Of a stretch of DNA of 64,000 nucleotides, positions 22,541-61,499 are shown piece after piece (position 1 is the first letter of the stretch; each line of letters opens with the position of its first letter). Location of the stretch: positions 37,538 to 101,537 of the forward strand of contig CAWCOD010000011.1 in NCBI GenBank assembly GCA_963797055.1. The letters run 5' to 3'. Source of the stretch: an uncultured Holophagae bacterium (lineage in GTDB: Bacteria; Acidobacteriota; Thermoanaerobaculia; Thermoanaerobaculales; Sulfomarinibacteraceae). The position numbers were made by a program, and so were the translations under genes. The notes beneath the pieces were generated by a model. That model was not told where the DNA came from. It worked only from the letters and a program-made list of their open reading frames with translations, and did no database searches.

Positions 22541-22666
22541 CGCGCCCATCTCCCCTGTGCGCTCCCCGAGGTTACGCGCGGCCTTCCGGCTCCGCCCTCC
22601 AGCCTTCGCCGTGACAAGCCGGCCGCGGTGACCAGCCGTCACCAGCGAGTGACCAGTGGCCGGGTC
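22541..22666. repeat. Composite repeat (filled form), overlapping the 3' end of the membrane-protein gene
   Basis: Near-identical to 25191-25282 plus an inserted module. Confidence 0.88.
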
Positions 22667-25016: not shown

Positions 25017-25074
25017 GGCCCCCGGACTGTAGGGAGTATGGCCTCTGGCGTCAAACTGGGAAGTTGCTCGCGTT

Positions 25075-43127: not shown

Positions 43128-43715
43128 CCGCCCACCCGGAGAGGGATGTGCGCTTGATGGGCGGGCGTTCCACTCCGGGCACCTTGAGGTTGAAAGTTGA
43201 AAGTTAAACGTTGAACGTTCCCACCGACCCACCCGGATCGTGAAAGGCACAATGGGCGCGATGATCGGGCGTGCCGTCTTTGACATTGTTGGGAATTCAG
43301 GGGACGTGATCACTCAGTAGGTGGGTCCCAACAATGTCAAAGGGGGCAACCTGCCGGCGGCAGCGGTTGTGGCGTGGCCGTGTGCGGCGGCCATGTCCGA
43401 TCCTGTACGCAGGATCAGAGGCCTTACGGCCACCCGCTGGTGACGGCTGGTCACCGCGGCCACCGGCCGCGAGTAACCTCGGGGAGCGCGACGGGGAGAT
43501 CGGCGCGACGAAATCAGTGAATCTAAGCGAACGCGCTCACCCGGTGCCAGGCACCGTCGAAATCGAGTCGTAGTGCGAGGTCGACACATCTGCGGCGGTG
43601 CCTGGCACCGACATGGAGATCGGAATACGAGGGGGGCAACCTGCCGGCGGCAGCGGCCGTGGCCGTGTGCGCCGGCCACGTCCGATCCTGTACGCAGGAT
43701 CAGAGGCCTTGCGGC
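43128..43715. repeat. Largest composite intergenic repeat, with an internal ~85-bp direct duplication
   Basis: Core motif, (TTGAAAG)n, co-varying hairpin, GGTGACCAGCCGTCACC, GCGCTCCCC and paired GGTGCCWGGCACC. 43342-43430 resembles 43632-43715. Confidence 0.9.
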
Positions 43716-46700
43716 GTGCGGACGATGGTCGGTGGCCGTGAGGCAAGCTCGTCAACCGCCTGACAGAAGCGCGCAAAGGCGGGATACTCCTCTGGCGACA
43801 CGGTCCGCGCCGGAACCTCCAGGGTCATCACCGAACGGTGCCAATCACCGTCAACTCCAAGTTCCTCCTCCAACGATCCCCAGGGGGAGCTCAGACGCCG
43901 CGGCGGACGATCCACGATCCATCCCGCCGGCGGCAGAATCTCGGTGACCACCCTCTCGGTGATGGCCATTCGGAGTTCCAAGGGGTACTCCCTGGCCGGC
44001 AGCGACGCAAGCGACGGCACCAGAGGTCTGGCGATCACCAGGCCTCGGCACACCATCCGCTCCCCTGTCCTGTCACAGGCCCCGGGCAGCCTCAGCTCGA
44101 GCCGAAGTTGGGTGTCAACCCCCGAGGTCTCCACCGAGCCTGTCACCTCAGCCGCACCCGGGAACAGGTTATTCGCCATCCGCACGAAGAGCTGCTCCAC
44201 CCGGTCCGCCGGAATACTCTCAATCTGTGCCACCAGCTGTTCCCCGTCGGAGCCCTCCAAGGGCATCACGAAGTCGAGGGAAGCGCCGCCGGCGGCGTCT
44301 ATGGATGCCGCCAAGGAGATCCTCTGACGATACGCCGGGTTCGGGAACGACGGGAGTTCGGCGAGAAAGGTCACCGGCCGATTGGGGTCGGACAGGGGGA
44401 GCACGAGACCGTCACCCCCCTGGTAGATCGGCTGGATATGGTTCACTCCTGCCAGACGTTCCTCGAGATCGATCCAGATCTGACCCGAATCCCGCTGGAC
44501 CCTCAGCAACGGTTCCCCGAAGGTCTCCAGGGTGGGCACTTCGAGATGAACCCCGGCAAGCGGCGCGGGCCGTCCCAGCACCAGATCCACATCCCAACCG
44601 GCGGCGATGAGCGCAGCGGCGATGATCCCGAGGCGGTTGCCCTCCCGACGAGAGAAGCCCTGACCCGCGGTGATCGACAGATCCATATCGCGCCGCCCAG
44701 CGGCCACCTCGTCGAGCACTCCCTCCACCAGACTTCTCACCGCCGCCTCGTCGTCGGTTTCCGCGAGAATCGGAGCGCTCCAATCGCGGAGTTCCGGTGA
44801 GGTCCGGAATACCCACAACATGCGATCCCGCATGATGTCGCCAACGTCCTGCCACGTCACCCCGAAGCTGTAGCTGACCCATGGTAGAAGATCCCGCGCC
44901 ATGGGAGACAGGGGTTCGAGGCGCAGCGGCGGTACGTCCTCATTCAGCCAGCGGATGGCATGGAGCCCATCGTGATCCCATTCCTTGCGCTGGAGACCTT
45001 CGAAGTTGCCGTCCATCATGAGGTCGACGTCGTCGGGAACCAGCAGCAGGTACTCGGAGCGACCAAAGGCCCGGTTCTCGTCGGCAAACCGATAGACGTA
45101 GGGAGACATGTGGCCTCGACGCGAGGCGCCGGTGGGGCGCACACTGGCCACATATTCCTCCTCAACCAGGTCGCCCGCGGCGACGTCTCCCAGCACCAAT
45201 CCGCCGTTTCTGGCTTCCATCTGTGCAGGCACCACCACCCGACCGTCAGGCTTGATGATTCGAATCTTCAAAAGGAAGGCGTCCGGCATCTGCTGCAGCG
45301 TCGACGCCTGACGGGCACCCACCGGCGTCACCGCTCGGCTGACCCCGTGATAGTAGTAGAGGGCCGAGCCGTCCGAGTAGACGCGCTCCACTGCCTGGTC
45401 GAGCAGCAGCATCACATCCACCCCCTCGCCGGCGGTGAACTCCACGTCACGAATATCGTCCAGATCCACTCGAAAAGGTTCAAAGAACGACGTCAACCCG
45501 CGGCTCCAGGCAAGGGTCCGGAATTGGATATTCGAAGGATCGTTCTCGAGCGCCGCCGCCAGCGTCTCATCAAGGCTCGCATCGTCGGTCGCTTCCGAGA
45601 TCAGGCGCAGGTGGTCGCAAGCGGGCAGATCGCCCCACCGCTGCGCCGCCCAATCCAGTTCCTCCCGGGCCCGCTCCATATCACCCGCACCGATCAGCAG
45701 CCTGATCCTCGCGATATCCACGGAAGGGTCATCGACCCGATCCTCGATCCGATCGAGGGCCGACACCGCTTCGTCGGCCATACACCCAGTTGCCAGTGCC
45801 TCGATCCACTGCAACCTGACCGGATCGGTGCCGGCCACCGATTGCAGCAGGTCCCTCCGATCCTCCCACAGGTCGAGGGCTTCAAGCGCCGACAACCGAA
45901 GATCCATGACGCTGGGTGATTCAGGCAGCTCCGACTCCAGCCCTTCGATGCCTTCCTCGACCTCGCCCGCCCAACCGCGACGCAACGCTTCACGAACCCA
46001 CAGCTGCCGCACCCGGGCGTCATCTCCGTTGGATTCCACAACCTCGTCGAGCACCCGCTCCAGGTCTTCAGGGCGTTGCTCACGCAGCGCGAGTGCCCGT
46101 TCGGCGAGCTTCGACCCAGGAACATCTCCGGCATACCGCAACTCATCCCGAGCCCGCTGGTAGTCTGTTTCGGGGTCCTCTCCGGTGGCACCCATCAGGT
46201 AGTACCACGCCAGGGCCAGCCGCGGCCAGGGATCTCCAGGGGCCAGGTCCACGGCCTCCTCGAGCCGGGCCAGTTGTGAACGAGGATCGCCCCGGCCCGC
46301 CGCCAACTCGGCCGCCAGCAGCACCTCGGGGACCGTCGCCTGCCCATCGTCGATCCGTTCGGCCAGTGCCGCGGAGGCGGGCGGCAGCTGAAGCTCGGCT
46401 TTGGATCCCGCCCACGGGCCTCCAACGCCCGGCAGCACCACGGCGTCCACCGGAAATCCATCGGCGTCAAACAGGCTGACACGGGCTCGCGGCGTCATCC
46501 GCGATCCCATGGAGATCCGCAGCCGGTGGGTGCCGGGTCCGAGTTCCACTCGGAACCAGTTCACCTCGGGATCTTCCCGGCCACACAGACGGAGGCGCGC
46601 GAGAAGAACATCATCCAGTTCCACGTTGAGACCGCCGCTGCCCTCCACCACCATCCAACCATCCAGGTGTTGCTCAACCGCGAAGGTCCAGGCCGCCAGG

Positions 46701-47212
46701 GAGACGCCACCGGCATCCAGAGATTCGGGCGGCGCCACCGTGGCGTCGGGTGTTGTCATGAGCAGCCGATACGGCGACCAGACATGCGTCCAGGGCGTTT
46801 CCAGCGCCGGCAGATCGTCGTCGCCGGGAACCACATTTCTTTCCAGATCAAGATCATCGAAGACGCCGAAGGGGCCGGAAATCTCCACCGGCATCAAACT
46901 GCCGTCGGGCGGCCGACCGAGGATCTCCGCCGCGATTCGGGCCATGAGGAAACCGAGTTCAGGGTCGCGAGGACGCTCGTCGAAAAGCAGTATTTCACTC
47001 GGGTCCTGGAGATGGTTGAGGCTGTCCAACCACCACAGCGCGGCACCGACCCCGTCGGCGACAGTGGGGCCCTCGGCGACGGTATCCAGTGCTTTCTGGC
47101 GCGCCTCGTGAAGGTCGAAGTCCTGATCCGCCAGGTGGATATCCCACCAATCCGCCCACCCGAGAGAGGCGGCCAGCAGTGCGACGAGAACAGCCGTCAG
47201 GCGCCGTATCAT
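43700..47212 (-). CDS. Secreted TPR + DUF3857/transglutaminase-like protein, apparently lacking the catalytic Cys/His
   Basis: Signal peptide, TPR-like helices, LLDQAVERVYSDG, GDLVE. EGNRL where the paralog has GDCKD. Confidence 0.78.
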   Translation of the reverse strand: MIRRLTAVLVALLAASLGWADWWDIHLADQDFDLHEARQKALDTVAEGPTVADGVGAALWWLDSLNHLQDPSEILLFDERPRDPELGFLMARIAAEILGRPPDGSLMPVEISGPFGVFDDLDLERNVVPGDDDLPALETPWTHVWSPYRLLMTTPDATVAPPESLDAGGVSLAAWTFAVEQHLDGWMVVEGSGGLNVELDDVLLARLRLCGREDPEVNWFRVELGPGTHRLRISMGSRMTPRARVSLFDADGFPVDAVVLPGVGGPWAGSKAELQLPPASAALAERIDDGQATVPEVLLAAELAAGRGDPRSQLARLEEAVDLAPGDPWPRLALAWYYLMGATGEDPETDYQRARDELRYAGDVPGSKLAERALALREQRPEDLERVLDEVVESNGDDARVRQLWVREALRRGWAGEVEEGIEGLESELPESPSVMDLRLSALEALDLWEDRRDLLQSVAGTDPVRLQWIEALATGCMADEAVSALDRIEDRVDDPSVDIARIRLLIGAGDMERAREELDWAAQRWGDLPACDHLRLISEATDDASLDETLAAALENDPSNIQFRTLAWSRGLTSFFEPFRVDLDDIRDVEFTAGEGVDVMLLLDQAVERVYSDGSALYYYHGVSRAVTPVGARQASTLQQMPDAFLLKIRIIKPDGRVVVPAQMEARNGGLVLGDVAAGDLVEEEYVASVRPTGASRRGHMSPYVYRFADENRAFGRSEYLLLVPDDVDLMMDGNFEGLQRKEWDHDGLHAIRWLNEDVPPLRLEPLSPMARDLLPWVSYSFGVTWQDVGDIMRDRMLWVFRTSPELRDWSAPILAETDDEAAVRSLVEGVLDEVAAGRRDMDLSITAGQGFSRREGNRLGIIAAALIAAGWDVDLVLGRPAPLAGVHLEVPTLETFGEPLLRVQRDSGQIWIDLEERLAGVNHIQPIYQGGDGLVLPLSDPNRPVTFLAELPSFPNPAYRQRISLAASIDAAGGASLDFVMPLEGSDGEQLVAQIESIPADRVEQLFVRMANNLFPGAAEVTGSVETSGVDTQLRLELRLPGACDRTGERMVCRGLVIARPLVPSLASLPAREYPLELRMAITERVVTEILPPAGWIVDRPPRRLSSPWGSLEEELGVDGDWHRSVMTLEVPARTVSPEEYPAFARFCQAVDELASRPPTIVRTPQGL

Positions 47213-50200
47213 GGAATCTCCAACGGCCGCTTGAGACGCCGTTCCGCGTCCACCAGGAATTGTCGGAACTGGGGGGCATCAGCGGCGGTCACCGTCCCGG
47301 GCACGAGCTGGAAGAGTCCTGTAACCAGGTACCCGTTGCCAGACGCGGCGTAGTCCAACGACAGGGAACCGAACTGGGTATCGAGGTCCACCGAGGACGG
47401 CAGCGATCCTGGAGGTCGTCCAAGCTCCACTTCGAGGGTCCATTCGAGGACCGGACGCGCCGGCACCAGGAGGGGCCCGCTTCGATCCCCCTTGGGCGCC
47501 AACCGTGCCGCCCAGTCCAACTCACCGGGAAATGTGCTGACACCCCCGGCGCTGAGGAGAGCGGCCCGAGCGACCCGACCCTCGATCTCCATCACCGCGG
47601 GATCTCGGCCCGGGATCATTCTCAGCTCGGACTCCTCCACCAGCTCCGCCCCGGGAAATTGGCTCTGCAACCAGCGCGCGACACGGCGCGAGTCGCGGCT
47701 GCCGGCGAAGGTCGCCCGACGGTAATCAGCCGCCTCGCCCGTATCTTCGGTTCGGATTTTCAACGGAATGAGGCCGGCCTCCGCCACACCCAGCCGGTAC
47801 TGGTAACGGGCGAAACCCGCCCCTGGTGTCGGTGTGATCTGTGGCGCGCTGTCGATTCCGTCCACCACCAGCACCTGGGCACCCTGGCACATGGCGGGCG
47901 GAGGAAAGGCCGCATGGCCGGCCGCCGTACCATCCAACCATAAGTCGTCCTCCGGGAGGTATACGATGGCGTGATTGAAATTCTCCAGCAAGGCGAGATC
48001 GGACTCGGCCACCCCGAGATCCGAAGTCCGCACCATCACCATGAGGGCAGGGATGTCCACCGCTTCGAGGAGCGCCACCAGCAACCCGGCCTTGTCCTTG
48101 CAGTCACCGATCTTGTGGTTGAGCACCCAGTCCGCGGAGAACGGTCGGAAGCGGTGTTCGCCAAACTCCAGACCCACATAACGGATATCCGTCGTCACGA
48201 AACGATAGATGCGGGCGATCCGGTCGAGGCGATCGTCCACACCCTCCGTCAGCCGCGCCGCCTTTTCCTCCACCTGCCGCGAGGCCCGTATTCGGGGAGC
48301 GGTGTGCCGCTCGTACCACACGGCCAAGTCCCCCCAATCGGGGTGATTCGAGTACACCAGATGGGGGTTGAACTGCAGCACCGGCGCCGGTGGAGAGTCC
48401 TCGGGAACCGCTTGGAGATTCAACCAACGCCAGCTCAGGGTCACCGTTCCGTCGGGATTCTCGCTGCGAACGGGAACACCGTCGATGTGCACCAGGTCCC
48501 ACACCGGAAGCAGATCCTCCGGCCCACTCAGTTCCAGCTCCGCCAATCCCACCGCCTCCGGTTGGCCAATCTGCAACAGACCACCTTTGTAGGGGCCGGT
48601 GTCGTTGCTCTCAGCCGTTTCCGACAACACCCACGCCAGTTCGAGCAGATCACCGTCGGAGAGATCAAGGAACCGAAAGACCCGCAACCGGGCGTCGTAG
48701 TAGAGGTTGATCTCCGGTTCGGCGAGCCGCGGCGTGTCACTCTGTCGTGCGTTGACCTGGGTGCCGTCCCGTCTCAGGATCCTGGCCTCGAGAATGCGCA
48801 GCCGTTGGCGCTCGGGAACATGGGCGAGGGTACGTGTCAGATACTCATCGGCCCGTGCCGCGTCTCGGATCAAGTACACCTGCTGCGCCCTGGTCTCGGT
48901 CAATTGAGCCGGCAGGAACAGCACCTCGGTGTGGTCCAGGATCCGGACCGCCGGGCTGCCCTCGGGCGCCTTGTCAGCGAGAGCCCACAGCTCGTCAGGG
49001 CGGCGCAGCCACTGGAGATCCTCGGCCGCTTCGCCAAGAAAAGACAGCAGGCGCTGAGCCCGACGATCCTGGGGCCGCAGCTCGAGGATCTGCCGCGCCA
49101 GCTCGGTGGCCCGCTCGGTCTCGCCGGCATCGAACTCGACCCTGGCCAACTCCATCAGCAGTTCCAACTGGCCGGGACATCGATCCAATCCGTCGGACAG
49201 CACGCGGCGAGCCTCGTCGCGGCTTCCCGACACCGCCAACATTCGCGACAGACGCACCCTCACCGCCACCCAATTCGGGTCCTGGCGCAGTCTCTCGGTC
49301 AGCAGCTCGAGGATCCGGGCCGAGTCGCCGCAGTCCTCGGACAGCTGCTCCTCGAACTCCAGCGTCACCATGGCTCCCGGCACCAGCCCGCTCAGTCGAT
49401 CCGTTGCCTCCTGAGCCAGGTCCCAGCGGGTCAATCCGATGGCAAGGTCGCCGAAGGTGGCTGCGGCCGTGACGCAGGCCGGAGCCGACCTGGAGAGTTC
49501 TGCCGCCTTGGGAAGGATGACCTGCCCCCACAACTCCGCCTCCTGTTCGATGATGGCGGCGTGCACCGCCGGCACCGACTCCGCCACCGCCAGAATATCG
49601 GCCGCCTCCTGGTACAGGCCCCGGGCCTGGTACCACCGAGCCAGCTCGATTCGGGCCCAGTGGAGGTCCGGATCGTATGACACCGCACCCTCCAGCAGCT
49701 CGCGTTTGGCACCGGGTTCGGCCGGCAACATCCACTCCAACAACCTCGCCTCGCCCGGGGCTTCGGTCCGCGCCGCACGGCAGACCGATCTGGTGTCGTC
49801 TGCGCCCACCGGCTGCGGGTGTCGAGCCACCAGCAAGGCCGCAAGAGAGAGGGTCGCGCCCTCTCGGCCCCGGGCCATGGCGCTTCGGAGCTCATCCTCC
49901 AAGCCACGGACCTGGGGACGATTCCGGTCGACACTCATCGCCGGCGCGGGCGGCCGGTCGACTTCACGAACCCCTTCGAGCCGCGTGCCGTCGGGCGCCG
50001 TCAGCCGCAGCCTGAGCCACCAGTCGTCGCTCTCCGAAGCCACCGCCACCACGATGAGGTTTGGTCCAGCCGCGAGCCATCCGCCAGCCACATACTGATC
50101 CTCGGCGTGTCGCAGTGGTTGAGCCGTGGTGAGCATTTCCTGGCCGTTGAGCCAGACCCGAGCAACCTGTGCCGCCCCAAGCCGTATGGCCACAGGCTGC

Positions 50201-50784
50201 TGCTGATCACTGACCACCGTGGCCGAGAGGTGGAGAAGCTGGCGGCGCGCAGGCCACGCCATGCCACTGACCCGAACCCATCCCAGAGGATCGGTGCCGG
50301 GCACGGCCCGCCACTGAGCATCATCGGCCGGTATGCGGGCCTGTTCCGGGAAATCCTCGAGTTCGCCGATGGTCATCGGCCCATGGGCCCACCATGCAGT
50401 GATGCCTCCCATGGTCCGAAACAGCTCCCTCGCGGCCGACGGCCGACCGGCCTCCACCGCGAGCATCGACCGAATCCAGCGCACCTCGTCCGACATCAAC
50501 GGATCCATCGGCCGGGCGGCCGCCAACCGATCCACCGAGCGCTCCGCCAGGCCCCAGTCTTCGAGGGTGAAACGCCAGCTGAAGACGGTGAACAGATCAT
50601 GGAAATCGGTGGGATCGAGGCCCTGCACCACGGCCGTCTCGACGTGATCCTGCACCTGCTGGTCGATGGTGACCGACCCACCCCAGACGGCGCTCGTCAA
50701 CAAAATGCATACGGTCATCACTCCCGACAGCTTCCATCGGGTCCTGGCGCCGTTTCGGTCAACTCCCAACCATCCGCGCATCAC
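47209..50784 (-). CDS. TPR + DUF3857 + transglutaminase-like protein with intact Cys-His-Asp triad
   Basis: IRYVGLEFG, GDCKDKA, FNHAI, WLDGT. Start uncertain (50784 or 50718). Confidence 0.88.
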   Translation of the reverse strand: MMRGWLGVDRNGARTRWKLSGVMTVCILLTSAVWGGSVTIDQQVQDHVETAVVQGLDPTDFHDLFTVFSWRFTLEDWGLAERSVDRLAAARPMDPLMSDEVRWIRSMLAVEAGRPSAARELFRTMGGITAWWAHGPMTIGELEDFPEQARIPADDAQWRAVPGTDPLGWVRVSGMAWPARRQLLHLSATVVSDQQQPVAIRLGAAQVARVWLNGQEMLTTAQPLRHAEDQYVAGGWLAAGPNLIVVAVASESDDWWLRLRLTAPDGTRLEGVREVDRPPAPAMSVDRNRPQVRGLEDELRSAMARGREGATLSLAALLVARHPQPVGADDTRSVCRAARTEAPGEARLLEWMLPAEPGAKRELLEGAVSYDPDLHWARIELARWYQARGLYQEAADILAVAESVPAVHAAIIEQEAELWGQVILPKAAELSRSAPACVTAAATFGDLAIGLTRWDLAQEATDRLSGLVPGAMVTLEFEEQLSEDCGDSARILELLTERLRQDPNWVAVRVRLSRMLAVSGSRDEARRVLSDGLDRCPGQLELLMELARVEFDAGETERATELARQILELRPQDRRAQRLLSFLGEAAEDLQWLRRPDELWALADKAPEGSPAVRILDHTEVLFLPAQLTETRAQQVYLIRDAARADEYLTRTLAHVPERQRLRILEARILRRDGTQVNARQSDTPRLAEPEINLYYDARLRVFRFLDLSDGDLLELAWVLSETAESNDTGPYKGGLLQIGQPEAVGLAELELSGPEDLLPVWDLVHIDGVPVRSENPDGTVTLSWRWLNLQAVPEDSPPAPVLQFNPHLVYSNHPDWGDLAVWYERHTAPRIRASRQVEEKAARLTEGVDDRLDRIARIYRFVTTDIRYVGLEFGEHRFRPFSADWVLNHKIGDCKDKAGLLVALLEAVDIPALMVMVRTSDLGVAESDLALLENFNHAIVYLPEDDLWLDGTAAGHAAFPPPAMCQGAQVLVVDGIDSAPQITPTPGAGFARYQYRLGVAEAGLIPLKIRTEDTGEAADYRRATFAGSRDSRRVARWLQSQFPGAELVEESELRMIPGRDPAVMEIEGRVARAALLSAGGVSTFPGELDWAARLAPKGDRSGPLLVPARPVLEWTLEVELGRPPGSLPSSVDLDTQFGSLSLDYAASGNGYLVTGLFQLVPGTVTAADAPQFRQFLVDAERRLKRPLEIP

Positions 50785-50877
50785 GTCAGTATCTCAGATC
50801 CTTCCCCGGGCCCTGCCCCCGTAGAACGTTATACGTCGGTCAGGGCTTCCGGGTCACAGTGTGGAGGGCGGCGAACA

Positions 50878-51050
50878 GCCGCCCGCCCACCCATTGCGAA
50901 TTGCGAGATTGCAGATTGCAGATTGCAGATTCCCCCGCCCACCCGGACCTTGTGTTCGCGCGATGATCGGGGCGTGCCCTCTCCCGATCCGGGAGGGTGG
51001 GCGGGAACGTTCAACGTTTAACGTTCAACATTGAACTTTCAACTCTTGAC
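50878..51050. repeat. Composite repeat: core motifs with (TTGCAGA)n and inverted (AACGTTC)n tracts
   Basis: Shares parts with 61081-61260 and 43180-43275. Confidence 0.85.
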
Positions 51051-51133
51051 GTTCGACCTGGTGATCGGCCCACGGCTCTCCACCAACCGGTCTGGGGTAC
51101 GATGAGGATTGACCTTCAGAAAGGGGATCGTTG

Positions 51134-52207: not shown

Positions 52208-52271
52208 AAGATGGCGAGCGCGGCATCCGGGACCTGTAGAGGCTGACCGTCGATTGTCGCGAGCGGCTGAG

Positions 52272-52486
52272 GCTGGATGCTGGATACTGGATGCTCGATG
52301 CTGGATGCTCGATGCTCCACCCGAGTGGTGACGGCGCCAGGAGTTGATTCCCCGGACCCGCGGCTTACAGCTCTGGCGTGACACTGAAACCACAATTCGG
52401 CCGTTCCGTCTCGGATCTTGCATCTTGAATCTTGAATCTTGGATCTTGAATCTTGGATCTTGGATCTGGGCGGGCGGGCGGGCGGA
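52272..52486. repeat. 7-mer tracts (CTGGATG)x6 and (TCTTGRA)x7 plus (GGGC)n
   Basis: Directly visible tandem units at 52272-52317 and 52416-52467. Confidence 0.85.
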
Positions 52487-53863
<1,377 letters not shown>

Positions 53864-53892
53864 TGTGCGGTCTCATTTTAGCAGGAAGGGGG

Positions 53893-54192
53893 CCCCCTCC
53901 CACCCACCCAATTCGAAATTCGAAATTTCCGCCGCCCACCCGGCCAGAGGCTATGGGGCTATGAAATCCCCCGCCCACACCGTTACACGTTGCAAGTTGA
54001 AGGTTGAAAGTTCCCCCTTCCACCCGGAAGGAGCGGGCGCGTTGATCGGGCGTGCCGGGTATGACGTTGTGCGGTCGATGTTGACGAGAGATCCACAGCC
54101 ATAGGGGCCGCACAACGTCATACCGGGCAACCTCGGGGAGCGCATCGGGGAGATGGGCGCGCTGAAATCAGCCTATCAAATCGAACACGCAG
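53893..54192. repeat. Composite repeat: array of core motifs with different tandem tracts, then the co-varying hairpin and GCGCTCCCC module
   Basis: Four C-rich cores separated by (TTCGAAA), (GGCTATG) and (GTTGAAR) tracts. 17-bp perfect stem 54058-54124. Confidence 0.88.
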
Positions 54193-54193
54193 G

Positions 54194-55360
54194 TCAATCC
54201 TGGCGGCCGATGGCAGAGACGATCCAAGCCGAAAGCGACTCGAGCTTGAGCATCCCCCGCTGGGCGGCCTCCACCTCGCCGCAGCAAACCAGTGCATCCT
54301 CAAGCTCGTTGTCCGAGTACAGCGAGGCGCCCCGGAAGAGCTGACCGAGGGTCCATGGGGTGGGCAGCTTGCCCTTCTTTGCCAGCGGCGTCGGGCCATC
54401 CTCTTCGAGACGCTCGATGATCACCGGCGCGATACTGGAGGAGAACACACTTTGGTACCAGCGATCACGGCCGGTGCGGTCGGGATCAAGCTGGTCGACG
54501 AGGTCTGCGGCCACGGCCGTCCGCCGCAGATCGAGCATTTGCACCAGGAGATTGGAAACCTGGCCGCACAGGATGGCACCGATCCGGTCGGCCGCGACCG
54601 CCCGCCCCTGCCAGTCACGCACCGCCGACCCCGCCGCCGCAGCGCCGATCAGATCCAGCAGTGGTTTTGGCTCCCGTTGCAGCACGGCGTCCCGAACCAC
54701 CTCGAGGGATCGTTCGCGGGGAAAGACCAACCGCCGCACCAGTTCCTCATCCACCCCGGACGCTCCCGCCGCAGCGCCGAGGGTGCGTGCCTCGGCCACC
54801 AAACGCCGTGGGTCGAATCCGAGGCGATCGAGCAGCAGCGCTTCGGCGGCAGGCTCGAATCGAGTGTCGCCGGCCACCTTGCGGAGCAGCCCGGCCAGCA
54901 CCCGCCGCTGGTCGCCCGACAGCACCACGTCTTCCCAGGGCTTGGGACGTTCGGGCAGCGGGACCCATCGATAGCCGCCGGCGTCTTTCACGGCCTTCAC
55001 CAGCGGCCCCTTGGGTTGGCGACCGCACCAGGCACCCATCACCAGTCCAGTACCCTCGGGCAATCCCTCGGTGATCACCTCGATCAGCACCTCCGGGTCA
55101 GTTGGTTTGGGATCGTTGAGTGCACCCGCAGGGGCCGCAGCGCCCAACCATCCCCGTATTTCAGAAACCACCAGAACCCGGGTTGGCGCGAACAGGGACG
55201 GTGACCGGAGCTCCAACGCCAGGTCCTCGGGCGACGCGTCGTCGGACAGCCGTTCGACCTCAGCCCCACCAAGGGCGTCACAGGCCGCGGCAATGGCGTC
55301 GTTGAGGCTTTCCTCGACGAGGTAGTCGTTGCTGGACGCGATCAAGGCGAGCCGAGACAT
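54194..55360 (-). CDS. Divergent DNA polymerase III delta subunit (HolA)-like protein
   Basis: NDYLVEE, LRSPSLFAPTRVLVV, FEPAAEALLLDRLG, GVDEELVRRLV. Confidence 0.65.
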   Translation of the reverse strand: MSRLALIASSNDYLVEESLNDAIAAACDALGGAEVERLSDDASPEDLALELRSPSLFAPTRVLVVSEIRGWLGAAAPAGALNDPKPTDPEVLIEVITEGLPEGTGLVMGAWCGRQPKGPLVKAVKDAGGYRWVPLPERPKPWEDVVLSGDQRRVLAGLLRKVAGDTRFEPAAEALLLDRLGFDPRRLVAEARTLGAAAGASGVDEELVRRLVFPRERSLEVVRDAVLQREPKPLLDLIGAAAAGSAVRDWQGRAVAADRIGAILCGQVSNLLVQMLDLRRTAVAADLVDQLDPDRTGRDRWYQSVFSSSIAPVIIERLEEDGPTPLAKKGKLPTPWTLGQLFRGASLYSDNELEDALVCCGEVEAAQRGMLKLESLSAWIVSAIGRQD

Positions 55361-55430
55361 GTTCAGACCTGGACTACTGCGACGTCGGCGTGACAGGCGG
55401 TCGCCGAGGATCGCTCGTCAGCTGTCCGGC

Positions 55431-55784
55431 TTATAGCTCACCTCGATCCTGCAGCTCCTGGCAGTCGATGCAGTGCCGGGCCCAGGGCACCGCCTCGAGC
55501 CGCGCCATCTGCATCTTCTTGTCGCAGTTGACGCAGGTGCCGTAGGTTCCCTTTTCGATCCGATCGATGGCGGCGTCAATCCGGCGGAGAATCTCTCGCT
55601 CGCCGGCGGTCAGTTGGTAGGACAGATCAAGCGACATACTGGTCAGGGCGCGATCTCCCAGATCTGGGGCATCAGCGGCGTTGGCTTCCTTCACGCTGGT
55701 TCGAGCCTCGCGCACCCTGCCGAGGAGTTCGTCACTCTTTGCCGCCAGCCGCTTCAAGAACCGGTTCATTTCTCTGCGTCTCAT
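55431..55784 (-). CDS. TraR/DksA C4 zinc-finger protein
   Basis: DLGDRA (DxxDxA), GTYGTCVNC, RLEAVPWARHCIDC. GGAGG RBS before ATG 55784. Confidence 0.92.
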   Translation of the reverse strand: MRRREMNRFLKRLAAKSDELLGRVREARTSVKEANAADAPDLGDRALTSMSLDLSYQLTAGEREILRRIDAAIDRIEKGTYGTCVNCDKKMQMARLEAVPWARHCIDCQELQDRGEL

Positions 55785-55836
55785 CGGTCGCATCCTCCAG
55801 GCGACACCGAACATCGCGGTCGTCGCGAACCAACCA

Positions 55837-56319
55837 TTATTGTACGCGGAGTCGGTGGTATCCACCACCACCGAGAATCGAAACCGCCCGAAACAGCTGT
55901 TCCCACAGCATCAACCGAGCCAGCTGATGGGGCCACGTCATGGCGCCCAGCGAGACCCTCCGAAGAGCTTCCATCCTCAACCCGTCATCGAGTCCGAGAT
56001 CGCTGCCGACGACAAAGGCGACCCCTGGCACTCCACGATCCTCGAGTTCCCCGAGCCAGCCCGACAATCCTTCGCTCGACATCCGGTCACCGGCCTCATC
56101 CATGACCGCCAGCGACCACCCGTCGGGCACCTGTCGCCGAGCGAGTTCCGCTTCGGCGAGCAGCGCCCGTCTGGGATCGGTGTCCCGGCCCCCGGCCGCC
56201 GGTCGCAGCGCCCGGTCGGAAGCGGACCAGCGCCTGTCAACTCGCGCCCTGTAGGTCTCCACCTGTTTGGAGAAAGGGGTGGCGGACGGACGACCGAACC
56301 AGAGGACCCGGACCTTCAA
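55837..56319 (-). CDS. rlmH: 23S rRNA pseudouridine-1915 N3-methyltransferase
   Basis: FVVGSDLG, SLGAMTWPHQLARLMLWEQLFRA..GYH. TTG start overlaps the rsfS stop. Confidence 0.93.
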   Translation of the reverse strand: MKVRVLWFGRPSATPFSKQVETYRARVDRRWSASDRALRPAAGGRDTDPRRALLAEAELARRQVPDGWSLAVMDEAGDRMSSEGLSGWLGELEDRGVPGVAFVVGSDLGLDDGLRMEALRRVSLGAMTWPHQLARLMLWEQLFRAVSILGGGGYHRLRVQ

Positions 56320-56705
56320 GACCGTTCCGCAAAGCCGACCTCGTCGAGCCCGAGCTCGGCCGGAGCCACGTTGGGTGCATCGCCCCACAGGCCCTCGAGG
56401 GCATAGTAGGCACGTTTTTCCTCGGTGAAAATGTGCACGATGAGATCGCCGTAGTCCACCAGTACCCAGCCGCCCCGGCCGTCGCCTTCCACGTGCATCG
56501 GCCGCCGTCCGGCAGCCTTGAGGCGCCCCACGACACCATCCACCACGGCTGCCACCTGGCGGTCGCTGGCCGCGGAGCAGAGCAGCAGAGCATCCGCATA
56601 TGAGGTCATTTCTGTGACCTCGAGACCCACCAGCTGGAAGGCCTTCTTGTCGAGGGCCGCCTGGGCGGCGACTCGCATCACTTCGAGGTTCTCAGCGGTC
56701 AGCAT
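56316..56705 (-). CDS. rsfS: Ribosome silencing factor
   Basis: DKKA, EG..WVLVDYGDLIVHIF..RAYYALEGLW. Confidence 0.96.
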   Translation of the reverse strand: MLTAENLEVMRVAAQAALDKKAFQLVGLEVTEMTSYADALLLCSAASDRQVAAVVDGVVGRLKAAGRRPMHVEGDGRGGWVLVDYGDLIVHIFTEEKRAYYALEGLWGDAPNVAPAELGLDEVGFAERS

Positions 56706-57372
56706 CGTGACGCTCCTCGGACTCCCGCTGGTACAGGCCGTATCTTCGGATATAGGAGTAGACCTCGTGGGGCACCAGTTCCCGGATCGGCAGCCCGCTC
56801 TTCTGCCGGTTGCGGATCAGGGTCCCCGAAATCGGGAATGGCTCGTGGTCCAAAAGGTAAATAGTGTGGCCGTCGGGATCCGGTAGTTTTTCGAAGGGTT
56901 CCACCGTCCTCATGCGCTCAACGAGCTCGGGAGGCACCTTTGTTTCCAACTCGTCACCCCACATGTGAGCACGATGCAGGACCACCAGATGAACCAGGTC
57001 GGCGAGTTCTCGCCACCTCTCCCAGCTCGCAATCTGCGAGAAGGAATCGGATCCCAGCAGAAAGTACAGCACCGAGTCGGGAAAACGCTCCCGATAGATT
57101 TGGACCGTCTCCACCGTGTAGGTGAAGCCGGTGGCAAAGACCTCGTCGTCGGCGGCGAAAAACCGCTCATAGGGCAGGGTCGCCATGGCCACCATGGCCA
57201 ACCGGTGGGTCACCGGGGTCAGTTCGTCACCCTTCCGGTGGGGCGGGTTGCCCGACGGGACGAAGTACACCGCGTCGAAATGAAAGGTCTCCTGCGCCCG
57301 CACCGTGGGCACGAGGTGCCCAAGGTGGAACGGATCGAAGGCGCCTCCGTAGACCGCGATTCGACTGCTCAT
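56692..57372 (-). CDS. nadD: Nicotinate-nucleotide adenylyltransferase
   Basis: GGAFDPFHLGH, PPHR, YTVET, LLGSDS, ISGTLIR. Confidence 0.96.
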   Translation of the reverse strand: MSSRIAVYGGAFDPFHLGHLVPTVRAQETFHFDAVYFVPSGNPPHRKGDELTPVTHRLAMVAMATLPYERFFAADDEVFATGFTYTVETVQIYRERFPDSVLYFLLGSDSFSQIASWERWRELADLVHLVVLHRAHMWGDELETKVPPELVERMRTVEPFEKLPDPDGHTIYLLDHEPFPISGTLIRNRQKSGLPIRELVPHEVYSYIRRYGLYQRESEERHDADR

Positions 57373-58376
57373 GGACTCTCCCGTTCTTCGATCAACTCAA
57401 ACAGCATACCAATCAGTCGATCCACGCCCTCACCGGTCACCGCCGAAATGGCGCAGTGATCCACCCCGTGGTGTGCCGCCAACTCGGACAGCTCGGCCAT
57501 GGCTTGGTCGCGATCGCCCACCGCGTCCAACTTGGTGCCCACGAGCAGCCACGGTCGAGCGTGGAGGGTCTCGGAGTAGGCCTCGATCTCATTGCGAATG
57601 GTGACCACCCTGTCCGCCATGGATGACTCTTCGGCCAGATCCACGAGGTGGGCCAAGGCGCGACAGCGCTCCACGTGGCGCAGAAACTGGATACCGAGCC
57701 CGGCACCTTCGTGTGCGCCTTCGATGAGCCCCGGAATGTCAGCCGCAACCAACGATCGCCATTCCTCCGATGGCTGTACAACCCCGAGATAGGGCTCGAG
57801 GGTGGTGAACGGGTAATCGGCGATCTTCGGCCGGGCCGCCGAGATCCGTGACAACAGGGTGGACTTGCCGGCGTTGGGTCGTCCCACCAGCCCAAGATCC
57901 GCCATCAGTTTGAGCTCCAGCTCGAGCTCGACTTCCTCACCGACGCCCCCGGGATCCGCCTTCCGTGGCGCGCGGTTGGTCGAGGTCTTGAAGCGAGCGT
58001 TCCCCCGTCCCCCGTCCCCCCCTCTGGCGACGATCAGCCGTTGGCCGTCGTCGACGAGATCTCCCATGATCTCGTTCCGCGAAAGTTCGCGGACAACCGT
58101 TCCCGGCGGCACCGGCAGCACCATGTCAGATCCACCAGCCCCGGTCTTGTTCGATCCCTGGCCGTGACGGCCGTTCTCGGCCCTCACGATGCGGCGGTGA
58201 TGGATGTGGAGCAGGGTGTTGTAGCCCCCATCCACCTCCAGGATCACGTGGCCCCCTCGGCCACCGTCGCCACCATCCGGACCGCCGCGCGGTACAAACT
58301 TTTCTCGACGAAAGGACACGCACCCGTTGCCACCGTTACCTGCACGCACGGTCAGCCGAGCGGAGTCAATGAACAT
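57369..58376 (-). CDS. obgE: GTPase ObgE
   Basis: AGNGGNGCVSFRREKFVPRGGPDGGDGG, PNAGKST, YPFTT, DIPG. Confidence 0.98.
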   Translation of the reverse strand: MFIDSARLTVRAGNGGNGCVSFRREKFVPRGGPDGGDGGRGGHVILEVDGGYNTLLHIHHRRIVRAENGRHGQGSNKTGAGGSDMVLPVPPGTVVRELSRNEIMGDLVDDGQRLIVARGGDGGRGNARFKTSTNRAPRKADPGGVGEEVELELELKLMADLGLVGRPNAGKSTLLSRISAARPKIADYPFTTLEPYLGVVQPSEEWRSLVAADIPGLIEGAHEGAGLGIQFLRHVERCRALAHLVDLAEESSMADRVVTIRNEIEAYSETLHARPWLLVGTKLDAVGDRDQAMAELSELAAHHGVDHCAISAVTGEGVDRLIGMLFELIEERESP

Positions 58377-58409
58377 GGGTCGGCCGAATGGGGGTCAACT
58401 TTGCGTAAC

Positions 58410-58440
58410 GCGAAACGCGGCCCCGAATGTGGGCCGCGTG
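58410..58440 (-). terminator. Hairpin/terminator after rpmA
   Basis: ACGCGGCCC-7 nt-GGGCCGCGT followed by a short T run on the minus strand. Confidence 0.6.
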
Positions 58441-58481
58441 ATGGGATTTCGGTCTGTCCGAAGGCGTCATGCCGGCTGGAC

Positions 58482-58736
58482 TCAGTTGACAATCACACTG
58501 ATGAACCGACCGATTCTGCCTCGGTTCTGGAACTTGACCTGACCCTCAGAGGTGGCAAAAAGAGTGTCGTCCCTGCCGCGCTTGACGTTGCCGCCGGCCT
58601 TGAAGCGAGTGCCCCGCTGGCGAACGAGAATGGTCCCGGCCGTCACCTGCTGGCCGTCACCGACCTTGGTTCCGAGACGTTGCGCGTTCGAGTCGCGCCC
58701 GTTACGACTGGAGCCCTGTCCTTTCTTGTGAGCCAT
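58482..58736 (-). CDS. rpmA: 50S ribosomal protein L27
   Basis: [24 protein letters not shown]. Confidence 0.99.
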
Positions 58737-58744
58737 ACGTCCTC

Positions 58745-59068
58745 CTAGGCCTCGATGGCCTCGACCCGCACCCGGTAATAATCCTGCCGGTGCCCCTGGG
58801 TCCGTTTGTAGCCCTTGCGGCGCTTCTTCTTGAAAACGATGATCTTGTCACCGCGCACCGGAGCGACCACCTGGCCGCGCACCGTCACACCGTCCACCAC
58901 CGGATCACCGATGCGCACGGCGTCGCCGGTGGATACCAGCATCACCCGATCAAAGAGCAACGCGTCTCCGGACTTGAGGCCCGAAGTGGTCCGCTCTACC
59001 AGAAGCTCGTCGCCGGGACTGACCCGGTACTGCTTCCCGCCATGTTCCACAACTGCGTAGTCGCTCAT
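58745..59068 (-). CDS. rplU: 50S ribosomal protein L21
   Basis: [39 protein letters not shown]. Confidence 0.98.
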
Positions 59069-59135
59069 TGCACACCTCTCCCTCGTACGAGGGACCGGTG
59101 TTGTACCAGATTGGCGGTGTTGTGTCAATTTTTCC

Positions 59136-59460
59136 CCCTCCCTCCCGGTGAGCTGTAAGCAGTTGGCAGTAGGCTGTTGACCCTCCCGTCCTCCCCGCGG
59201 GCGTGTTGTTCGGAGGTGCCTGGCATCCCGATTCGCCGAAGTCGTCAAACGAATTCGTCTCGTTGAGTCGAATTGGTGTGCCTGGCAGCCTCACGGGAAG
59301 CGAGATGAAGATTGGGACGCGACGAAGGCTCCCCGCGCGTTTGCTTCGATTCGCTGATCCCTGCGCGCCACTCTCCCTCTCCGGGCAGGAGCGACTGTCA
59401 ACTGTCGACTCTCTCCATGAATGCCAGGTCGGCAGTTCCTCAAGTCCTCACAATCCCGGG
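59136..59460. repeat. Degenerate composite repeat
   Basis: 7-mer tracts, GGTGCCTGGCA variants and the GCGTTTGCTTCGATTCG module. 59210-59228 is an exact inverted match to 61442-61460. Confidence 0.7.
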
Positions 59461-59929
59461 CTGTCGGGGGGCGGGGCGAATCCCGACGACGTGGGCGCTG
59501 GCCGGGAGGCCCATCCTGCTCGCGGCTGCGACGGAACTGACGCCGGATCTCCTGGATCTCCTGCCACTGTTGGTCGGTGAGCACCCCCCGAACGGCGAGC
59601 AACATCTCGAAGCGTTCCGACTCCAGTGCCCGTCGTGCGTCCTGCAGACCGGCAAAGGCGGCTCGCGCGGCGGCAGATTCGAAGTCCGAGTTCGCCACGA
59701 GGTTGGCCAGTTCGAGCTCCGCTTTCTTCACGCCGGCGTTGAGGTCGATCATCCGGCGGGCGTGTTCGTAGACCTCTGTCCGGATCTCCTCCCGCTGGGC
59801 GTCGGTCAGCTCGAGCCGCTCCGCCAGCCGTTCGTTGTCCCACCACTTGCCCGGGGGAAGGTTGAAGTCCTGCGCCCCCACCGTCACGGCCAGGACCAGG
59901 ATGAAGAGGGTCAATACGGTGTTTTTCAT
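59291..59929 (-). CDS. Spy/CpxP-like periplasmic protein (C-terminus uncertain, reads into a repeat)
   Basis: Signal peptide, PPGKWW, LELTDAQR, VLTDQQW (LTxxQ). Confidence 0.82.
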   Translation of the reverse strand: MKNTVLTLFILVLAVTVGAQDFNLPPGKWWDNERLAERLELTDAQREEIRTEVYEHARRMIDLNAGVKKAELELANLVANSDFESAAARAAFAGLQDARRALESERFEMLLAVRGVLTDQQWQEIQEIRRQFRRSREQDGPPGQRPRRRDSPRPPTARDCEDLRNCRPGIHGESRQLTVAPARRGRVARRDQRIEANARGAFVASQSSSRFP

Positions 59930-59949
59930 GGTTGCCTCCCGCGCGGCCT

Positions 59950-60423
59950 TCATGAGACGTCGCCTGCAAGATAGCTCTCGAGCTCTTCCATGCCCGGGTC
60001 GATCACCTCGAAACCCGGGATGGAGTCGTCGGCCAACAACTCGTCCACCTCGGCCAGGATTTCCTCCACGGAGATGTCGGCCCCGTTGGAGGCGATCTCG
60101 GTGTGCTCGGGGCGCAGCAGCCCGACCACCGCGACCACGATCAACGCCGCGGCCGCCGCCAGCAGCGGCCGGAGCCAGGACTTCGGCTGCTTGTGCTGGA
60201 CCGCCTGTCGCTCCGGCAGCCGATGGAGGACCGCCGCCCGCTGGGCTTCCCAATCCGGCTCGCCGACGGCCATCGAGTGGCGTCTGAGCCGAATCAACTT
60301 CTCCATGGTCGCCACCTTGTGGCGGCAGTCCAGGCATGAATCGAGATGCCCACGCATATCAGGGGCGAGCTCGGCGCCGGCCACCGCGCCCGCGATCTGT
60401 TCATCGTCCAGGTGCCTATTCAT
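59950..60423 (-). CDS. Membrane anti-sigma factor with zinc-finger (HxxxCxxC)
   Basis: HLDDEQ..HLDSCLDC plus a single TM. Coupled to the sigma gene. Confidence 0.85.
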   Translation of the reverse strand: MNRHLDDEQIAGAVAGAELAPDMRGHLDSCLDCRHKVATMEKLIRLRRHSMAVGEPDWEAQRAAVLHRLPERQAVQHKQPKSWLRPLLAAAAALIVVAVVGLLRPEHTEIASNGADISVEEILAEVDELLADDSIPGFEVIDPGMEELESYLAGDVS

Positions 60424-60998
60424 CTCGCATCTCCCAACTCGGCCCGCAATCTGTGCACCGCACGGTGTAGCTGCGTCTTGACCGTCCCAACGTGCACGCC
60501 GAGCGCGCCCGCGATCTCCTCGAGTTCGAGTTCCGCGTAGAACCGAAGACGGAAGATCTCTCGCTGCCGCTCCGGCAGGTCCCGCTCGAGGAGGGCCAGG
60601 CGATCAACCGCCTGCCGCTGCATGGTCCGGTCCAACGGTCCGGCCGTATCATCGGCAAGCTCGGTGAGGATGTCGTTTCCCTCTTCTTCACCGACAACAT
60701 CGGCTTTCAGACCCTGGCGGCGGCGGCGGCGAAGTTCGTCCAGGCTGGTGTTGATGGCGATCCGCGTCAGCCAGGTGGTGAAGGCCGATCTGCCGTCGAA
60801 TAACTCGAGGTTGGTATAGGCCTTCACCAAGGTGTCCTGGGCGGCCGCATCGGCATCATCCGTTCCGACGTACTGACGACACACCCGCCATACTCGTTGC
60901 TGATGGCGCACCACCAGCTCCGAGAAAGCGTCGCGATCCCCGTTTCGAGCCCGCATGACGAGGGCGTCGTCGGACTCCGAGGGATCTCGACTGGGCAT
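60420..60998 (-). CDS. ECF sigma-70 factor
   Basis: GDRDAFSELV, AFTTWLTRIAIN, LPERQR, GTVKTQLHRA. Confidence 0.93.
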   Translation of the reverse strand: MPSRDPSESDDALVMRARNGDRDAFSELVVRHQQRVWRVCRQYVGTDDADAAAQDTLVKAYTNLELFDGRSAFTTWLTRIAINTSLDELRRRRRQGLKADVVGEEEGNDILTELADDTAGPLDRTMQRQAVDRLALLERDLPERQREIFRLRFYAELELEEIAGALGVHVGTVKTQLHRAVHRLRAELGDAR

Positions 60999-61077
60999 AC
61001 TTACTGCTCGCAACACGTTGGTTTGACGAAACCCGGCCGTTCGCGTTGACAGTCTTCCATCGCCTTCCAGGGTACCG

Positions 61078-61475
61078 CCACCCCCTCCCACCCTCCCATT
61101 GCGAATTGCGAATTGCAGATTGCAGATTCCCCCACCCACCCGGAGCGAAGTGGGAGGACGTGCGACTCCAGGCACCTTGAAGTTGAAAGTTGAAAGTTAA
61201 ACGTTGAACGTTTCCACCCACCCTCCCGGGTCGTGAAAGGGCGCGATGGGCGGGCGTGCCGTCTTTAACAATGTTGGGGCTCGCCAACTGAGTCATTCAG
61301 CCCTTTGGGTCCCAACATTGTTAAAGGGGGCAACCTCGGGTAGCGCTGTGGGGAGATGGGCGCGGTGAGGGGCCGGAGGCTCGATTGTGGCCGGCTTGGG
61401 GTCCTTCATTGCGCCCCGGTTCTTTGTCGCGCTTCCCGCGAGGATGCCAGGCACCTCCGAGAGACGCGCCCTCGG
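61078..61475. repeat. Composite repeat: cores, (TTGCAGA)n, (TTGAAAG)n, co-varying hairpin, GCGC/GGGAGATGGGCGCG and GGATGCCAGGCACC modules
   Basis: 61130-61335 is collinear with 43128-43352. Confidence 0.9.
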
Positions 61476-61499
61476 GCTAGGCCGTGGCGCCAGATTCCG

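Follow-up and report, generated by a model that had tools for sequence, protein, structure and literature searches.

Within a 64,000-nucleotide (nt) stretch of the genome of an uncultured Holophagae bacterium, hereafter the window (C11:37538-101537 of genome G000, an assembly of 5.04 Mb in 27 contigs with 62.9% G+C), three short segments between genes can each be folded into a long hairpin set in the same flanking sequences, with arms whose letters differ from one segment to the next. Why should pairing be kept where sequence is not, and does the hairpin act as RNA, as DNA that serves its host, or as a repeat that multiplies for itself? The analysis described here indicates that the hairpin, a cassette of ~69 nt, belongs to what is apparently an undescribed, lineage-specific variant of mosaic intergenic hairpin repeats. 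We consider it probable that the cassette is a selfish module resembling the bacterial interspersed mosaic elements (BIMEs) and the REPINs (paired repetitive extragenic palindromic, REP, sequences), spread by gene conversion and perhaps by cleavage of the kind performed by REP-associated tyrosine transposases (RAYTs).

The three stems that a model had noticed when given the letters alone (the sequence-only reading) are present, letter for letter, at 43278-43294/43326-43342 (copy 1), 61263-61278/61311-61326 (copy 2) and 54058-54074/54108-54124 (copy 3), and a covariance model of the family (R1) matches 43254-43361, 61239-61346 and 54035-54143 with 90-105 bits each. All three copies lie on the plus strand and begin with a left frame (43254..43275, 61239..61260 and 54035..54056, respectively), which in copy 1 reads GGGCGCG-N5-CGGGCGTGCC and ends in four bases, TGCC, that pair with the GGCA of the right frame. 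The hairpin cassettes follow at 43276..43344 (69 nt, subfamily GTCTTTGACATTGTTGGG, 17-bp stem, folding z-score -4.12, 90.2 bits), 61261..61328 (68 nt, subfamily GTCTTTAACAATGTTGGGG, z -4.82, 102.4 bits) and 54057..54125 (69 nt, subfamily GGGTATGACGTTGTGCGG, z -5.16, 105.1 bits); none of 200 shuffles folded as well, and the plus strand, read as RNA, was 7-10 kcal/mol more stable than the minus strand. Copy 1 differs by one letter from a cassette in G004, a genome of the same genus, and the copy 2 cassette has identical counterparts at C2:137329 and C6:497182. The right frame is uninterrupted in copy 2 (61329..61368) and in copy 3 (54126..54165, GGCAACC-TCGGGGAGCGC-N3-GGGGAGATGGGCGCG), whereas in copy 1 its start, GGCAACC (43345..43351), is interrupted directly behind AACC by a nested repeat element of ~124 nt (43352..43478, TGCCGGCGGCAGCGG...GCGAGTAACC) before the frame resumes as TCGGGGAGCGC-N3-GGGGAGATCGGCGCG (43479..43507). 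The imperfect inverted copy seen in the same reading was placed by R1 at 25323..25429 on the minus strand, frame and cassette together, with 56.8 bits; its fold is no better than that of shuffled sequences (z -0.93) and a nested element of ~113 nt stands beside it (about 25213-25332). The different hairpin that had been read into the frame at 50958-51000 did not hold up: only a left frame with one extra G is found there (50958..50979, plus strand), followed by a reverse-complemented C-rich box (C-box) and heptamer module, with neither a hairpin cassette nor an R1 match, and the small hairpin that can be drawn is equalled by 85 of 200 shuffles (z -0.13). A weak R1 match at 59199-59301 on the plus strand (34.7 bits, E 7.5e-4) is possibly another decayed copy.

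Beyond the window, nhmmer with a profile built from 106 seed copies found 210 loci in G000, 180 of them full length (97 on the plus and 83 on the minus strand). Copies that share a contig with the window had E-values from 1e-16 to 1e-27; the repeat is real and far beyond chance. All but 13 of the full copies (167 of 180) fall outside crude gene calls, which consisted of 3125 open reading frames (ORFs) chosen by G+C content at third codon positions and covered 72% of the genome. The 142 of 180 copies in which a regular expression found both anchors form 75 clusters at 90% identity, the largest with 14, 14 and 10 members, and several copies are identical in some of the subfamilies. Stem and loop are inherited together in these subfamilies, so that the loop is indeed variable, as had been supposed, yet does not vary freely: loop type travels with stem type. 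Within subfamilies the arms are more constrained than the loops (diversity 0.028 and 0.080, respectively).

To follow the pairing position by position, arms were indexed from the frame, which put 115 of the 142 anchored copies in register and left 92 distinct arm pairs over positions 1-18. Watson-Crick pairs fill 1357 cells of this table, against 150 G.T, 34 A.C and 115 other combinations, 45 of the latter being a conserved G.G at position 1; at positions 2-4 all but 3 of 276 cells are Watson-Crick or T.G. In an alignment of 37 diverse copies (A1), 92.5% of 851 cells are paired and 14 of 23 pairs have changed on both sides, compared with 32-47% pairing when the partner is slid by 1-3 columns, and none of 500 shuffles, which ignore relatedness, reached any of five measures. 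An independent set of 92 matches (88 distinct), taken from metagenomes at 80 loci and from other genomes at 13 and fitted to the model in a way that leans towards structure, is 94.7% paired, with double changes in 12 of 23 pairs. Here too the shuffles ignore relatedness; none of 500 reached the observed paired share, number of double-change cells or covariation score, while 2 reached the pair count and 13 the number of pair types. The two arms are thus constrained to pair on one strand, with G.T tolerated, and both sets, together with the excess of G.T, strongly support the claim that what is kept is pairing and not sequence, the covariation having persisted in 92 further copies from other DNA. 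Since G.T exceeds A.C, it is one particular strand that folds, the one reading GGGCGTGCC...GGCAACC. Pairing between the two frames was considered and dropped: RNAfold draws extra helices there, but the frames of 112 copies give no covariation (mutual information at most 0.22 bit and no Watson-Crick pattern), which leaves a structure made of the cassette stem and the four pairs TGCC/GGCA.

Matching arms could in principle arise with no selection on pairing at all, if one arm were repeatedly copied from the other by template switching or quasi-palindrome correction. Hairpins are known hot spots for template switching, and perfect stems of 16-20 bp in many copies are what such copying would leave. 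It would also erase wobbles, however, and T.G is retained at each of positions 2, 3 and 4 in 41-45 of the 92 arm pairs and in 40-43 of 86-88 independent copies; the G.G mismatch at position 1 is conserved in 45 of 92, and the decayed copy at 25323-25429 has stayed uncorrected. Arm-to-arm conversion, one of the mechanisms offered by the sequence-only reading, is unnecessary, fits poorly with wobbles kept at three positions, and is in our view highly improbable.

Strong covariation, wobble of the G.U type confined to one strand and the 7-10 kcal/mol advantage of the plus strand in the three good copies are all features that a structured small RNA, or an RNA module acting as stabiliser, processing site or attenuator, would be expected to show. 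Searches for such an RNA gave little. No Rfam family matched the window at its gathering score, and with E-values up to 1 at 11 loci the only matches were three microRNA hairpins at 23-26 bits, against gathering scores of 59-90. Neither a sigma-70-like promoter nor an intrinsic terminator was found around copy 1. Relative to the element, the neighbouring genes are convergent in 60 cases, both antisense in 54, both sense in 34 and divergent in 31, one copy lying at a contig end; the upstream gene is co-directional in 94 of 179 and the downstream gene runs antisense into the element in 114 of 179, so that orientation follows no rule. At all three good window copies both neighbouring genes are antisense to the element, and an operon transcript would consequently contain the strand on which the mismatches are A.C. 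In one study, two RNA-library runs contain contigs at least 90% like the repeat modules, including the cassette of another subfamily, and none over the flanking genes, in libraries where DNA is possible and for a repeat with ~180 copies in the genome. In addition, whole mosaics are present in one species and absent from the next, and an orthologous copy decays, as detailed below. We hold the RNA reading, which had been put forward from the letters alone, to be improbable.

A role of the loops as guides or spacers had been raised as well. When 123 distinct loops were compared with the genome, 536 matches fell inside family loci and 193 outside; 38 of the 40 outside matches listed are of 15-17 nt with E-values of 0.005-0.09, and a single loop accounts for the remaining two, of 25 and 21 nt. 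Loops thus match only other members of the family; searches of phages with copy 1, of plasmids with copy 3 and of viral contigs with a frame-plus-arm pattern were negative, and the idea was rejected.

What, then, moves? The cassette sits between two conserved linkers, GGGCGCG-N5-CGGGCGTGCC on the left and GGCAACC-TCGGGGAGCGC... on the right, and these same linkers also join heptamer arrays with a C-rich box, palindrome doublets and the ~124-nt element. With 356 occurrences of CGGGCGTGCC in the genome, the left frame is not private to the hairpin: the cassette follows in 159 of the 356 cases, and elsewhere CGGGCGTGCC leads into ACTCCGGGCACC with a heptamer array and C-box or into a palindrome doublet of the GGTGCCAGGCACC type, or, in 12 cases, 11 of them of one composite, directly into GGGCAACC, leaving the frame empty. 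Most copies carry upstream an AT-rich heptamer array joined to a CCCACCCACCCGG box. The complete right frame, GGCAACC-TCGGGGAGCGC-N3-GGGGAGATGGGCGCG, is present in 134 of 180 copies; the nested element stands behind AACC in 25 of 180, with the frame resuming in 22 of these 25 and doing so exactly 128 nt later in 15. At its decayed neighbour (25323-25429) the nested element provides a clean filled-versus-empty pair, the site being filled in G000 and the orthologous frame of G004 uninterrupted. The nested element (~113-128 nt, window 43352-43478 and about 25213-25332) sits exactly behind the AACC of the right frame, and its own end repeats AACC; at C19:86964 a remnant of just 14 nt is left of it. 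At least 155 of the 198 TCGGGGAGCGC modules come after a word that ends in CC, and the junctions between modules read GTGCC|, CAACC|T and TAACC|T.

Cassettes and frames assort almost freely. Among 284 pairs of copies whose cassettes are at least 90% alike, the variable 5-mer of the left frame is shared with a value of 0.61, compared with 0.53 in unrelated pairs, and the variable 3-mer region of the right frame with 0.52 compared with 0.48; copies whose 68-nt cassettes are identical have 5-mers with differences at 3 of 5 positions; and the similarities of left flank, cassette and right flank are correlated with r of 0.04-0.06 over 10011 pairs. All 539 matches between loops were same-strand and none was opposite-strand, which shows that the orientation of the cassette in its frame is fixed. 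Arms seldom occur alone: blastn-short returned 35 candidate loci, most with 14-15 of 20 letters. The cassette behaves as an independent unit that has been copied to many sites, exchanged between sites, deleted, and is common to several species. It does not have the marks of a miniature inverted-repeat transposable element (MITE) whose terminal repeats would account for the stems: although the arms themselves might be taken for inverted repeats, the cassette flanks, GTGCC and GGCAACC, hold no direct repeat that could be a target-site duplication, and no two arms bracket a gene in the G000 genome, as a parent insertion sequence (IS) would require. The variable 5-mer of the frame was tried as a target-site duplication and rejected on its sequences.

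The turnover of these mosaics can be read at gene junctions shared with related genomes. The rsgA spacer holds a mosaic of ~585 nt in both G000 and G004, in which heptamers, cassette subfamilies and cassette numbers differ, and measures 125-140 nt, with no mosaic, in G001, G002, G003 and G007. In G004 about 35 nt separate the genes that flank copy 3, and about 10 nt those that flank copy 2; in G000 these two tight junctions are split by mosaics of 295 nt (copy 3 with its upstream modules) and 428 nt, so that mosaics reshape operon junctions. At the latter site (window 61079-61507) a diacylglycerol-kinase-like gene of G004 stops ~20 nt before the GTG start of an extracytoplasmic function (ECF) sigma factor gene, and the kinase frame of G000 extends ~9 codons into the 428-nt mosaic before meeting a new stop. 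At window 22666, G000 lacks 196 nt that are kept in G004 (part of a nested element, a cassette, a left frame, a C-box and a heptamer array), and a TC microhomology at the junction points to a deletion in G000. Metagenome relatives with flanks 85-94% identical tell the same story, one contig (L243) having a mosaic where G000 has none and another (L256) having other modules at the same site. Resident copies can also decay: about 7 of 68 positions separate the copy at 25323-25429 from its G004 orthologue, a divergence similar to that of the flanks (88-90% identical), and the changes in G000 are uncompensated, leaving 56.8 bits where the intact G004 copy scores 102.5.

The replacement of a single tract was resolved at C10:204201-205017, which is collinear with contig L277 of a relative over 824 nt and has a coding flank ~88% identical to it. 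On the left, where the mosaic runs from heptamers and C-box through the left frame into the first 15 letters of the cassette's 5' arm, a single position differs, and the palindrome doublet to the right is nearly identical, whereas the middle ~150 nt, comprising the rest of the cassette and the right frame, is different throughout. The L277 cassette is of the ACTTTT...CGG type; that of G000 is a chimera in which the ACTTTT 5' end is joined to a loop and 3' arm of GTCTTT...GGGAACCAAGG type, and the same chimera recurs at C19:29612 and C19:37095, with a similar one at C19:489395. The C10 tract bears the mark of gene conversion from another copy, with its ends in conserved sequence.

Exchange appears to reach across lineages as well. 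Over 17 kb of syntenic, mostly coding DNA, G000 and G004 are 79-83% identical; among 40 G004 cassettes, 11 are identical to a G000 cassette (six subfamilies) and 22 are at least 95% alike, shares that are biased upward by a sample taken from the top of the R1 ranking with a model made from G000 copies. As loops differ freely between subfamilies, constraint on every letter is an unlikely cause of this identity, and we infer that cassettes have been exchanged recently between the lineages, or have spread very recently from shared masters. Window positions 22480-25222 are 90-97% identical to G004:C9 (L234), and the rest of the syntenic 60 kb 77-84%; this tract, whose identity indicates that DNA exchange between the lineages happens, is possibly the product of a recent recombination between the two.

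The family was mapped among genomes by an R1 search of 31 genomes in which up to 124 candidates were scored per genome. Within the genus, at least 124 matches were obtained in G000 and at least 124 in G004, 87 in G002, 67 in G003, 66 in G007 and 6 in G005 (71% complete), with none in G001 and G006 (92% and 94% complete); 5 of 11 genomes from other genera of the family gave 1-6 weak matches each, and 12 genomes from the second family of the order gave none. In the distant copies the frame is diverged but kept, and the arms are new and covarying. A metagenome scan yielded 119 stretches. Named records were scanned with the pattern CGGGCGTGCC-N60-80-GGCAACC and, with the best 80 of 119 stretches scored, gave three strong matches and one weak, the others being chance matches; the records truly matching the model are from an uncultured Holophagae bacterium (two) and a Candidatus Sulfomarinibacteraceae bacterium, and the weak one from a Thermoanaerobaculales bacterium. 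Phages had no match to copy 1, plasmids none to copy 3, and viral contigs none to the pattern of frame plus arm. A full-text search of the published literature on repeats of Acidobacteria or Acidobacteriota found no description of the hairpin-cassette family, and the passages found in the paper naming Ca. Sulfomarinibacter (PMC8528874) mention transposases and no such repeats.

This distribution bears on whether the hairpin is a structural DNA element that serves the host, like a BIME that binds integration host factor (IHF) or gyrase, with gene conversion alone keeping the copies alike. Conversion was seen at C10, the linkers are conserved with no pairing between them, as recognition by a protein would have it, and the diverged frame is kept in other genera of the family. 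Moreover, the arms of C5:150457 differ from those of L287 at 1 of 36 positions and from those of L315 at a few, compared with ~8 in the loops and 10% in the flanks; arms better kept than flanks would fit a constraint at the level of the host. On the other hand, two genomes of the same genus, 92% and 94% complete, do without any copy, sites filled in one species are empty in the next, and a site bound as duplex would not favour T.G over A.C. A host-serving element seems to us, on balance, quite unlikely.

The selfish BIME/REPIN-like reading would account for these data as follows. The hairpin would form in single-stranded DNA and only copies able to fold would propagate, which would keep the pairing in multiplying lineages while old resident copies decay; gene conversion between copies would spread and swap cassettes; and, less certainly, RAYT-type enzymes of the HUH (Y1) class might cleave and transfer strands at the CC| junctions between modules. 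The last step draws on a resemblance, in that the CC| junctions look like the cleavage sites of TnpAREP. This Escherichia coli enzyme requires single-stranded DNA and a REP that has both a mismatched stem and GTAG; it cuts at CC|T and links the cleaved ends (PMC3333891). Candidate enzymes are present: G000 has six Y1_Tnp loci, and both proteins tested from these pass the NCBIfam REP_Tyr_transpos equivalog (90.8 and 92 bits; cut-off 80). One of them, a RAYT of 248 aa at C11:35248-35994 (92 bits), lies just upstream of the window and has on both flanks a GTAG-type REP, GCAGGCGGGACGCCTGC, with CTAC. The segment C11:35228-36113, ~1.5-2.3 kb upstream of the window start, is a textbook REPtron, and the same REP recurs in many mosaics. 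The other Y1 loci, including genes for 333-aa Y1 proteins such as that at C2:346102-347103, are flanked by CCTGGCAC-type motifs akin to the GGTGCCAGGCACC doublets. No TnpB domain exceeded its cut-off in G000.

Several observations sit badly with this reading, the well-kept arms of C5:150457 and the sampling bias among the G004 cassettes included. None of the six Y1 loci is flanked by hairpin arms, and no arm lies within 3 kb of them, bar unrelated full copies near two. Genomes of the same genus that lack the family have Y1 genes too (7 in G001, 13 in G006); with Y1 genes everywhere in the group, a phyletic link with them is uninformative. The left junction of the cassette is CC|G or CC|A and not CC|T, and the arms are flanked by CGGGCGTGCC and GGCAACC, without the GTAG or CTAC tag of a REPIN. 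Orientation with respect to GC skew is not significant (63:34 versus 44:39, odds ratio 1.64, p 0.13), unlike the strand-specific insertion of IS200/IS605 elements. No event in which a cassette alone was excised or inserted was found, nearly every one of the 12 empty frames is a copy of a single larger composite, and the exchange between C10 and L277 ends inside conserved blocks and not at a CC| junction.

A bolder version would treat the frames as docking sites and the hairpins as the cassettes of a dispersed, strand-specific single-strand DNA exchange system with an enzyme of its own, by which cassettes would move from site to site and from species to species. Identical cassettes of 68-71 nt in genomes ~81% identical are what such a system might produce, and it would represent a new class of REP-like mobile DNA in Acidobacteriota, defined by a conserved linker and not by REPs that flank a transposase; we regard it as doubtful, if worth keeping in mind.

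How the family relates to known systems can be judged feature by feature. Streptococcus pneumoniae has BOX elements (boxA-boxB(n)-boxC) that, like the mosaics described here, are built of modules in varying number, lie scattered between genes and are predicted to form stable hairpins; to our knowledge they have no constant frame enclosing a covarying cassette and no sequence relation to the hairpin family. The attC sites of integrons combine a conserved outer part with a variable but pairing inner part, keep unpaired bases and have one functional strand, all of which recalls the cassette. However, attC sites carry RYYYAAC/GTTRRRY cores that are absent here, the hairpin copies stand singly between genes and not in arrays beside an integrase, and G000 has only two loci for tyrosine recombinases (Phage_integrase family), so that the attC comparison offered by the sequence-only reading is not supported.

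REPINs, whose definition and compensatory changes were reported by Bertels and Rainey (2011; PMC3116915), come closer. Shared with them are inverted, conserved arms around a less conserved spacer, giving a long hairpin in single-stranded nucleic acid, compensatory changes, hundreds of extragenic copies and RAYT genes in the genome; pairs far outnumber lone arms, with 180 paired copies against the 35 candidate lone-arm loci, and stems of 16-20 bp covary. Set against this, the cassette has no GTAG foot, its arms are not REP palindromes (they are non-palindromic apart from an ACA-N-TGT core in some subfamilies), no RAYT is flanked by the arms, and the cassette is always inside a conserved frame that other modules also use. 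The earlier suggestion of a REPIN-like, single-strand DNA substrate thus stands as the best fit among the mechanisms then offered, given the strand-specific G.T wobble, the very high number of copies, the identical copies within subfamilies, the turnover seen at orthologous sites and the RAYT genes of the genome, but not as far as a GTAG tag or an element-flanked RAYT is concerned. The BIMEs of E. coli (PMC3333891) likewise combine hairpin units and linker motifs in many ways, vary in number and make-up by strain and keep stem mismatches, and the CC| junctions resemble the CC|T sites of TnpAREP; here too modules combine independently and fillings differ at orthologous sites. The sequences, the phylum and the modules (heptamer arrays, C-box, 69-nt cassette) are different, and the hairpin is far longer than a REP. 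The same mosaics do contain GTAG-type REPs and a RAYT, but the cassette itself is no REP of that type. Di Nocera et al. (2013; PMC3733652) described GTAG and CGTC repeats and, in Acidobacteria, RAYT-like genes flanked by long inverted repeats; these TIR/TIRYT families share with ours the phylum and the association of Y1 transposase-like genes with moderately abundant inverted-repeat families, but the repeats flank the transposase there and hairpin arms flank 0 of 6 Y1 loci here. By the features tested, the cassette family is outside REPIN, MITE, attC and any Rfam family.

Repeats of the REP, BIME and REPIN kind are known mainly from Proteobacteria and their spread is still debated. The family provides a clean acidobacterial case, with hundreds of copies, unusually clear covariation, a strand-specific wobble signature, freely reassorting modules and a resolved conversion tract, and with cassettes identical between species whose genes differ by ~19%. 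In it one can ask whether repeats of this sort are maintained through selfish copying, through interspecies exchange or through service to the host. For annotators it carries a warning, namely that strong covariation alone does not make an RNA gene.

The remaining modules of the window repeat the mosaic pattern around the cassettes. Upstream of copy 1, at 43158..43253 on the plus strand, a left-frame remnant is followed by a GTTGAAA-type heptamer array, the C-box CCCACCGACCCACCCGG and a linker; the plus-strand module upstream of copy 2 (61151..61238) is 89% like 43158-43247 although the cassettes that follow differ; and copy 3 is preceded by three heptamer arrays with C-boxes (53893..54034, plus strand). 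Tandem arrays of AT-rich 6-7-nt units, each fused to a C-rich box CCCACCCACCC(GG), lie at 53893-54034, 61081-61238, 50876-50947, 2964-3108 and 6606-6752, with motifs that vary by site (GTTGAAA, ATTGCAG, AATTCGA, GAATTCT and others); the box has four C-runs on one strand and G-runs on the other, and may be G-quadruplex- or i-motif-like, to judge from its letters. REPIN-like doublets of a 13-nt palindrome (GGTGCCAGGCACC / GGTGCCTGGCACC), ~45 nt apart, occur at 8752-8826, 25083-25157 and 43537-43611, and 12-mers of the GGTGCCAGGCACC doublets reach up to 372 copies in the genome. Beside copy 1, an ORF of 1170 aa with no Pfam match (43700-47212, minus strand) adjoins a 1191-aa protein with TPR, DUF3857 and transglutaminase-core domains at 47209-50784.

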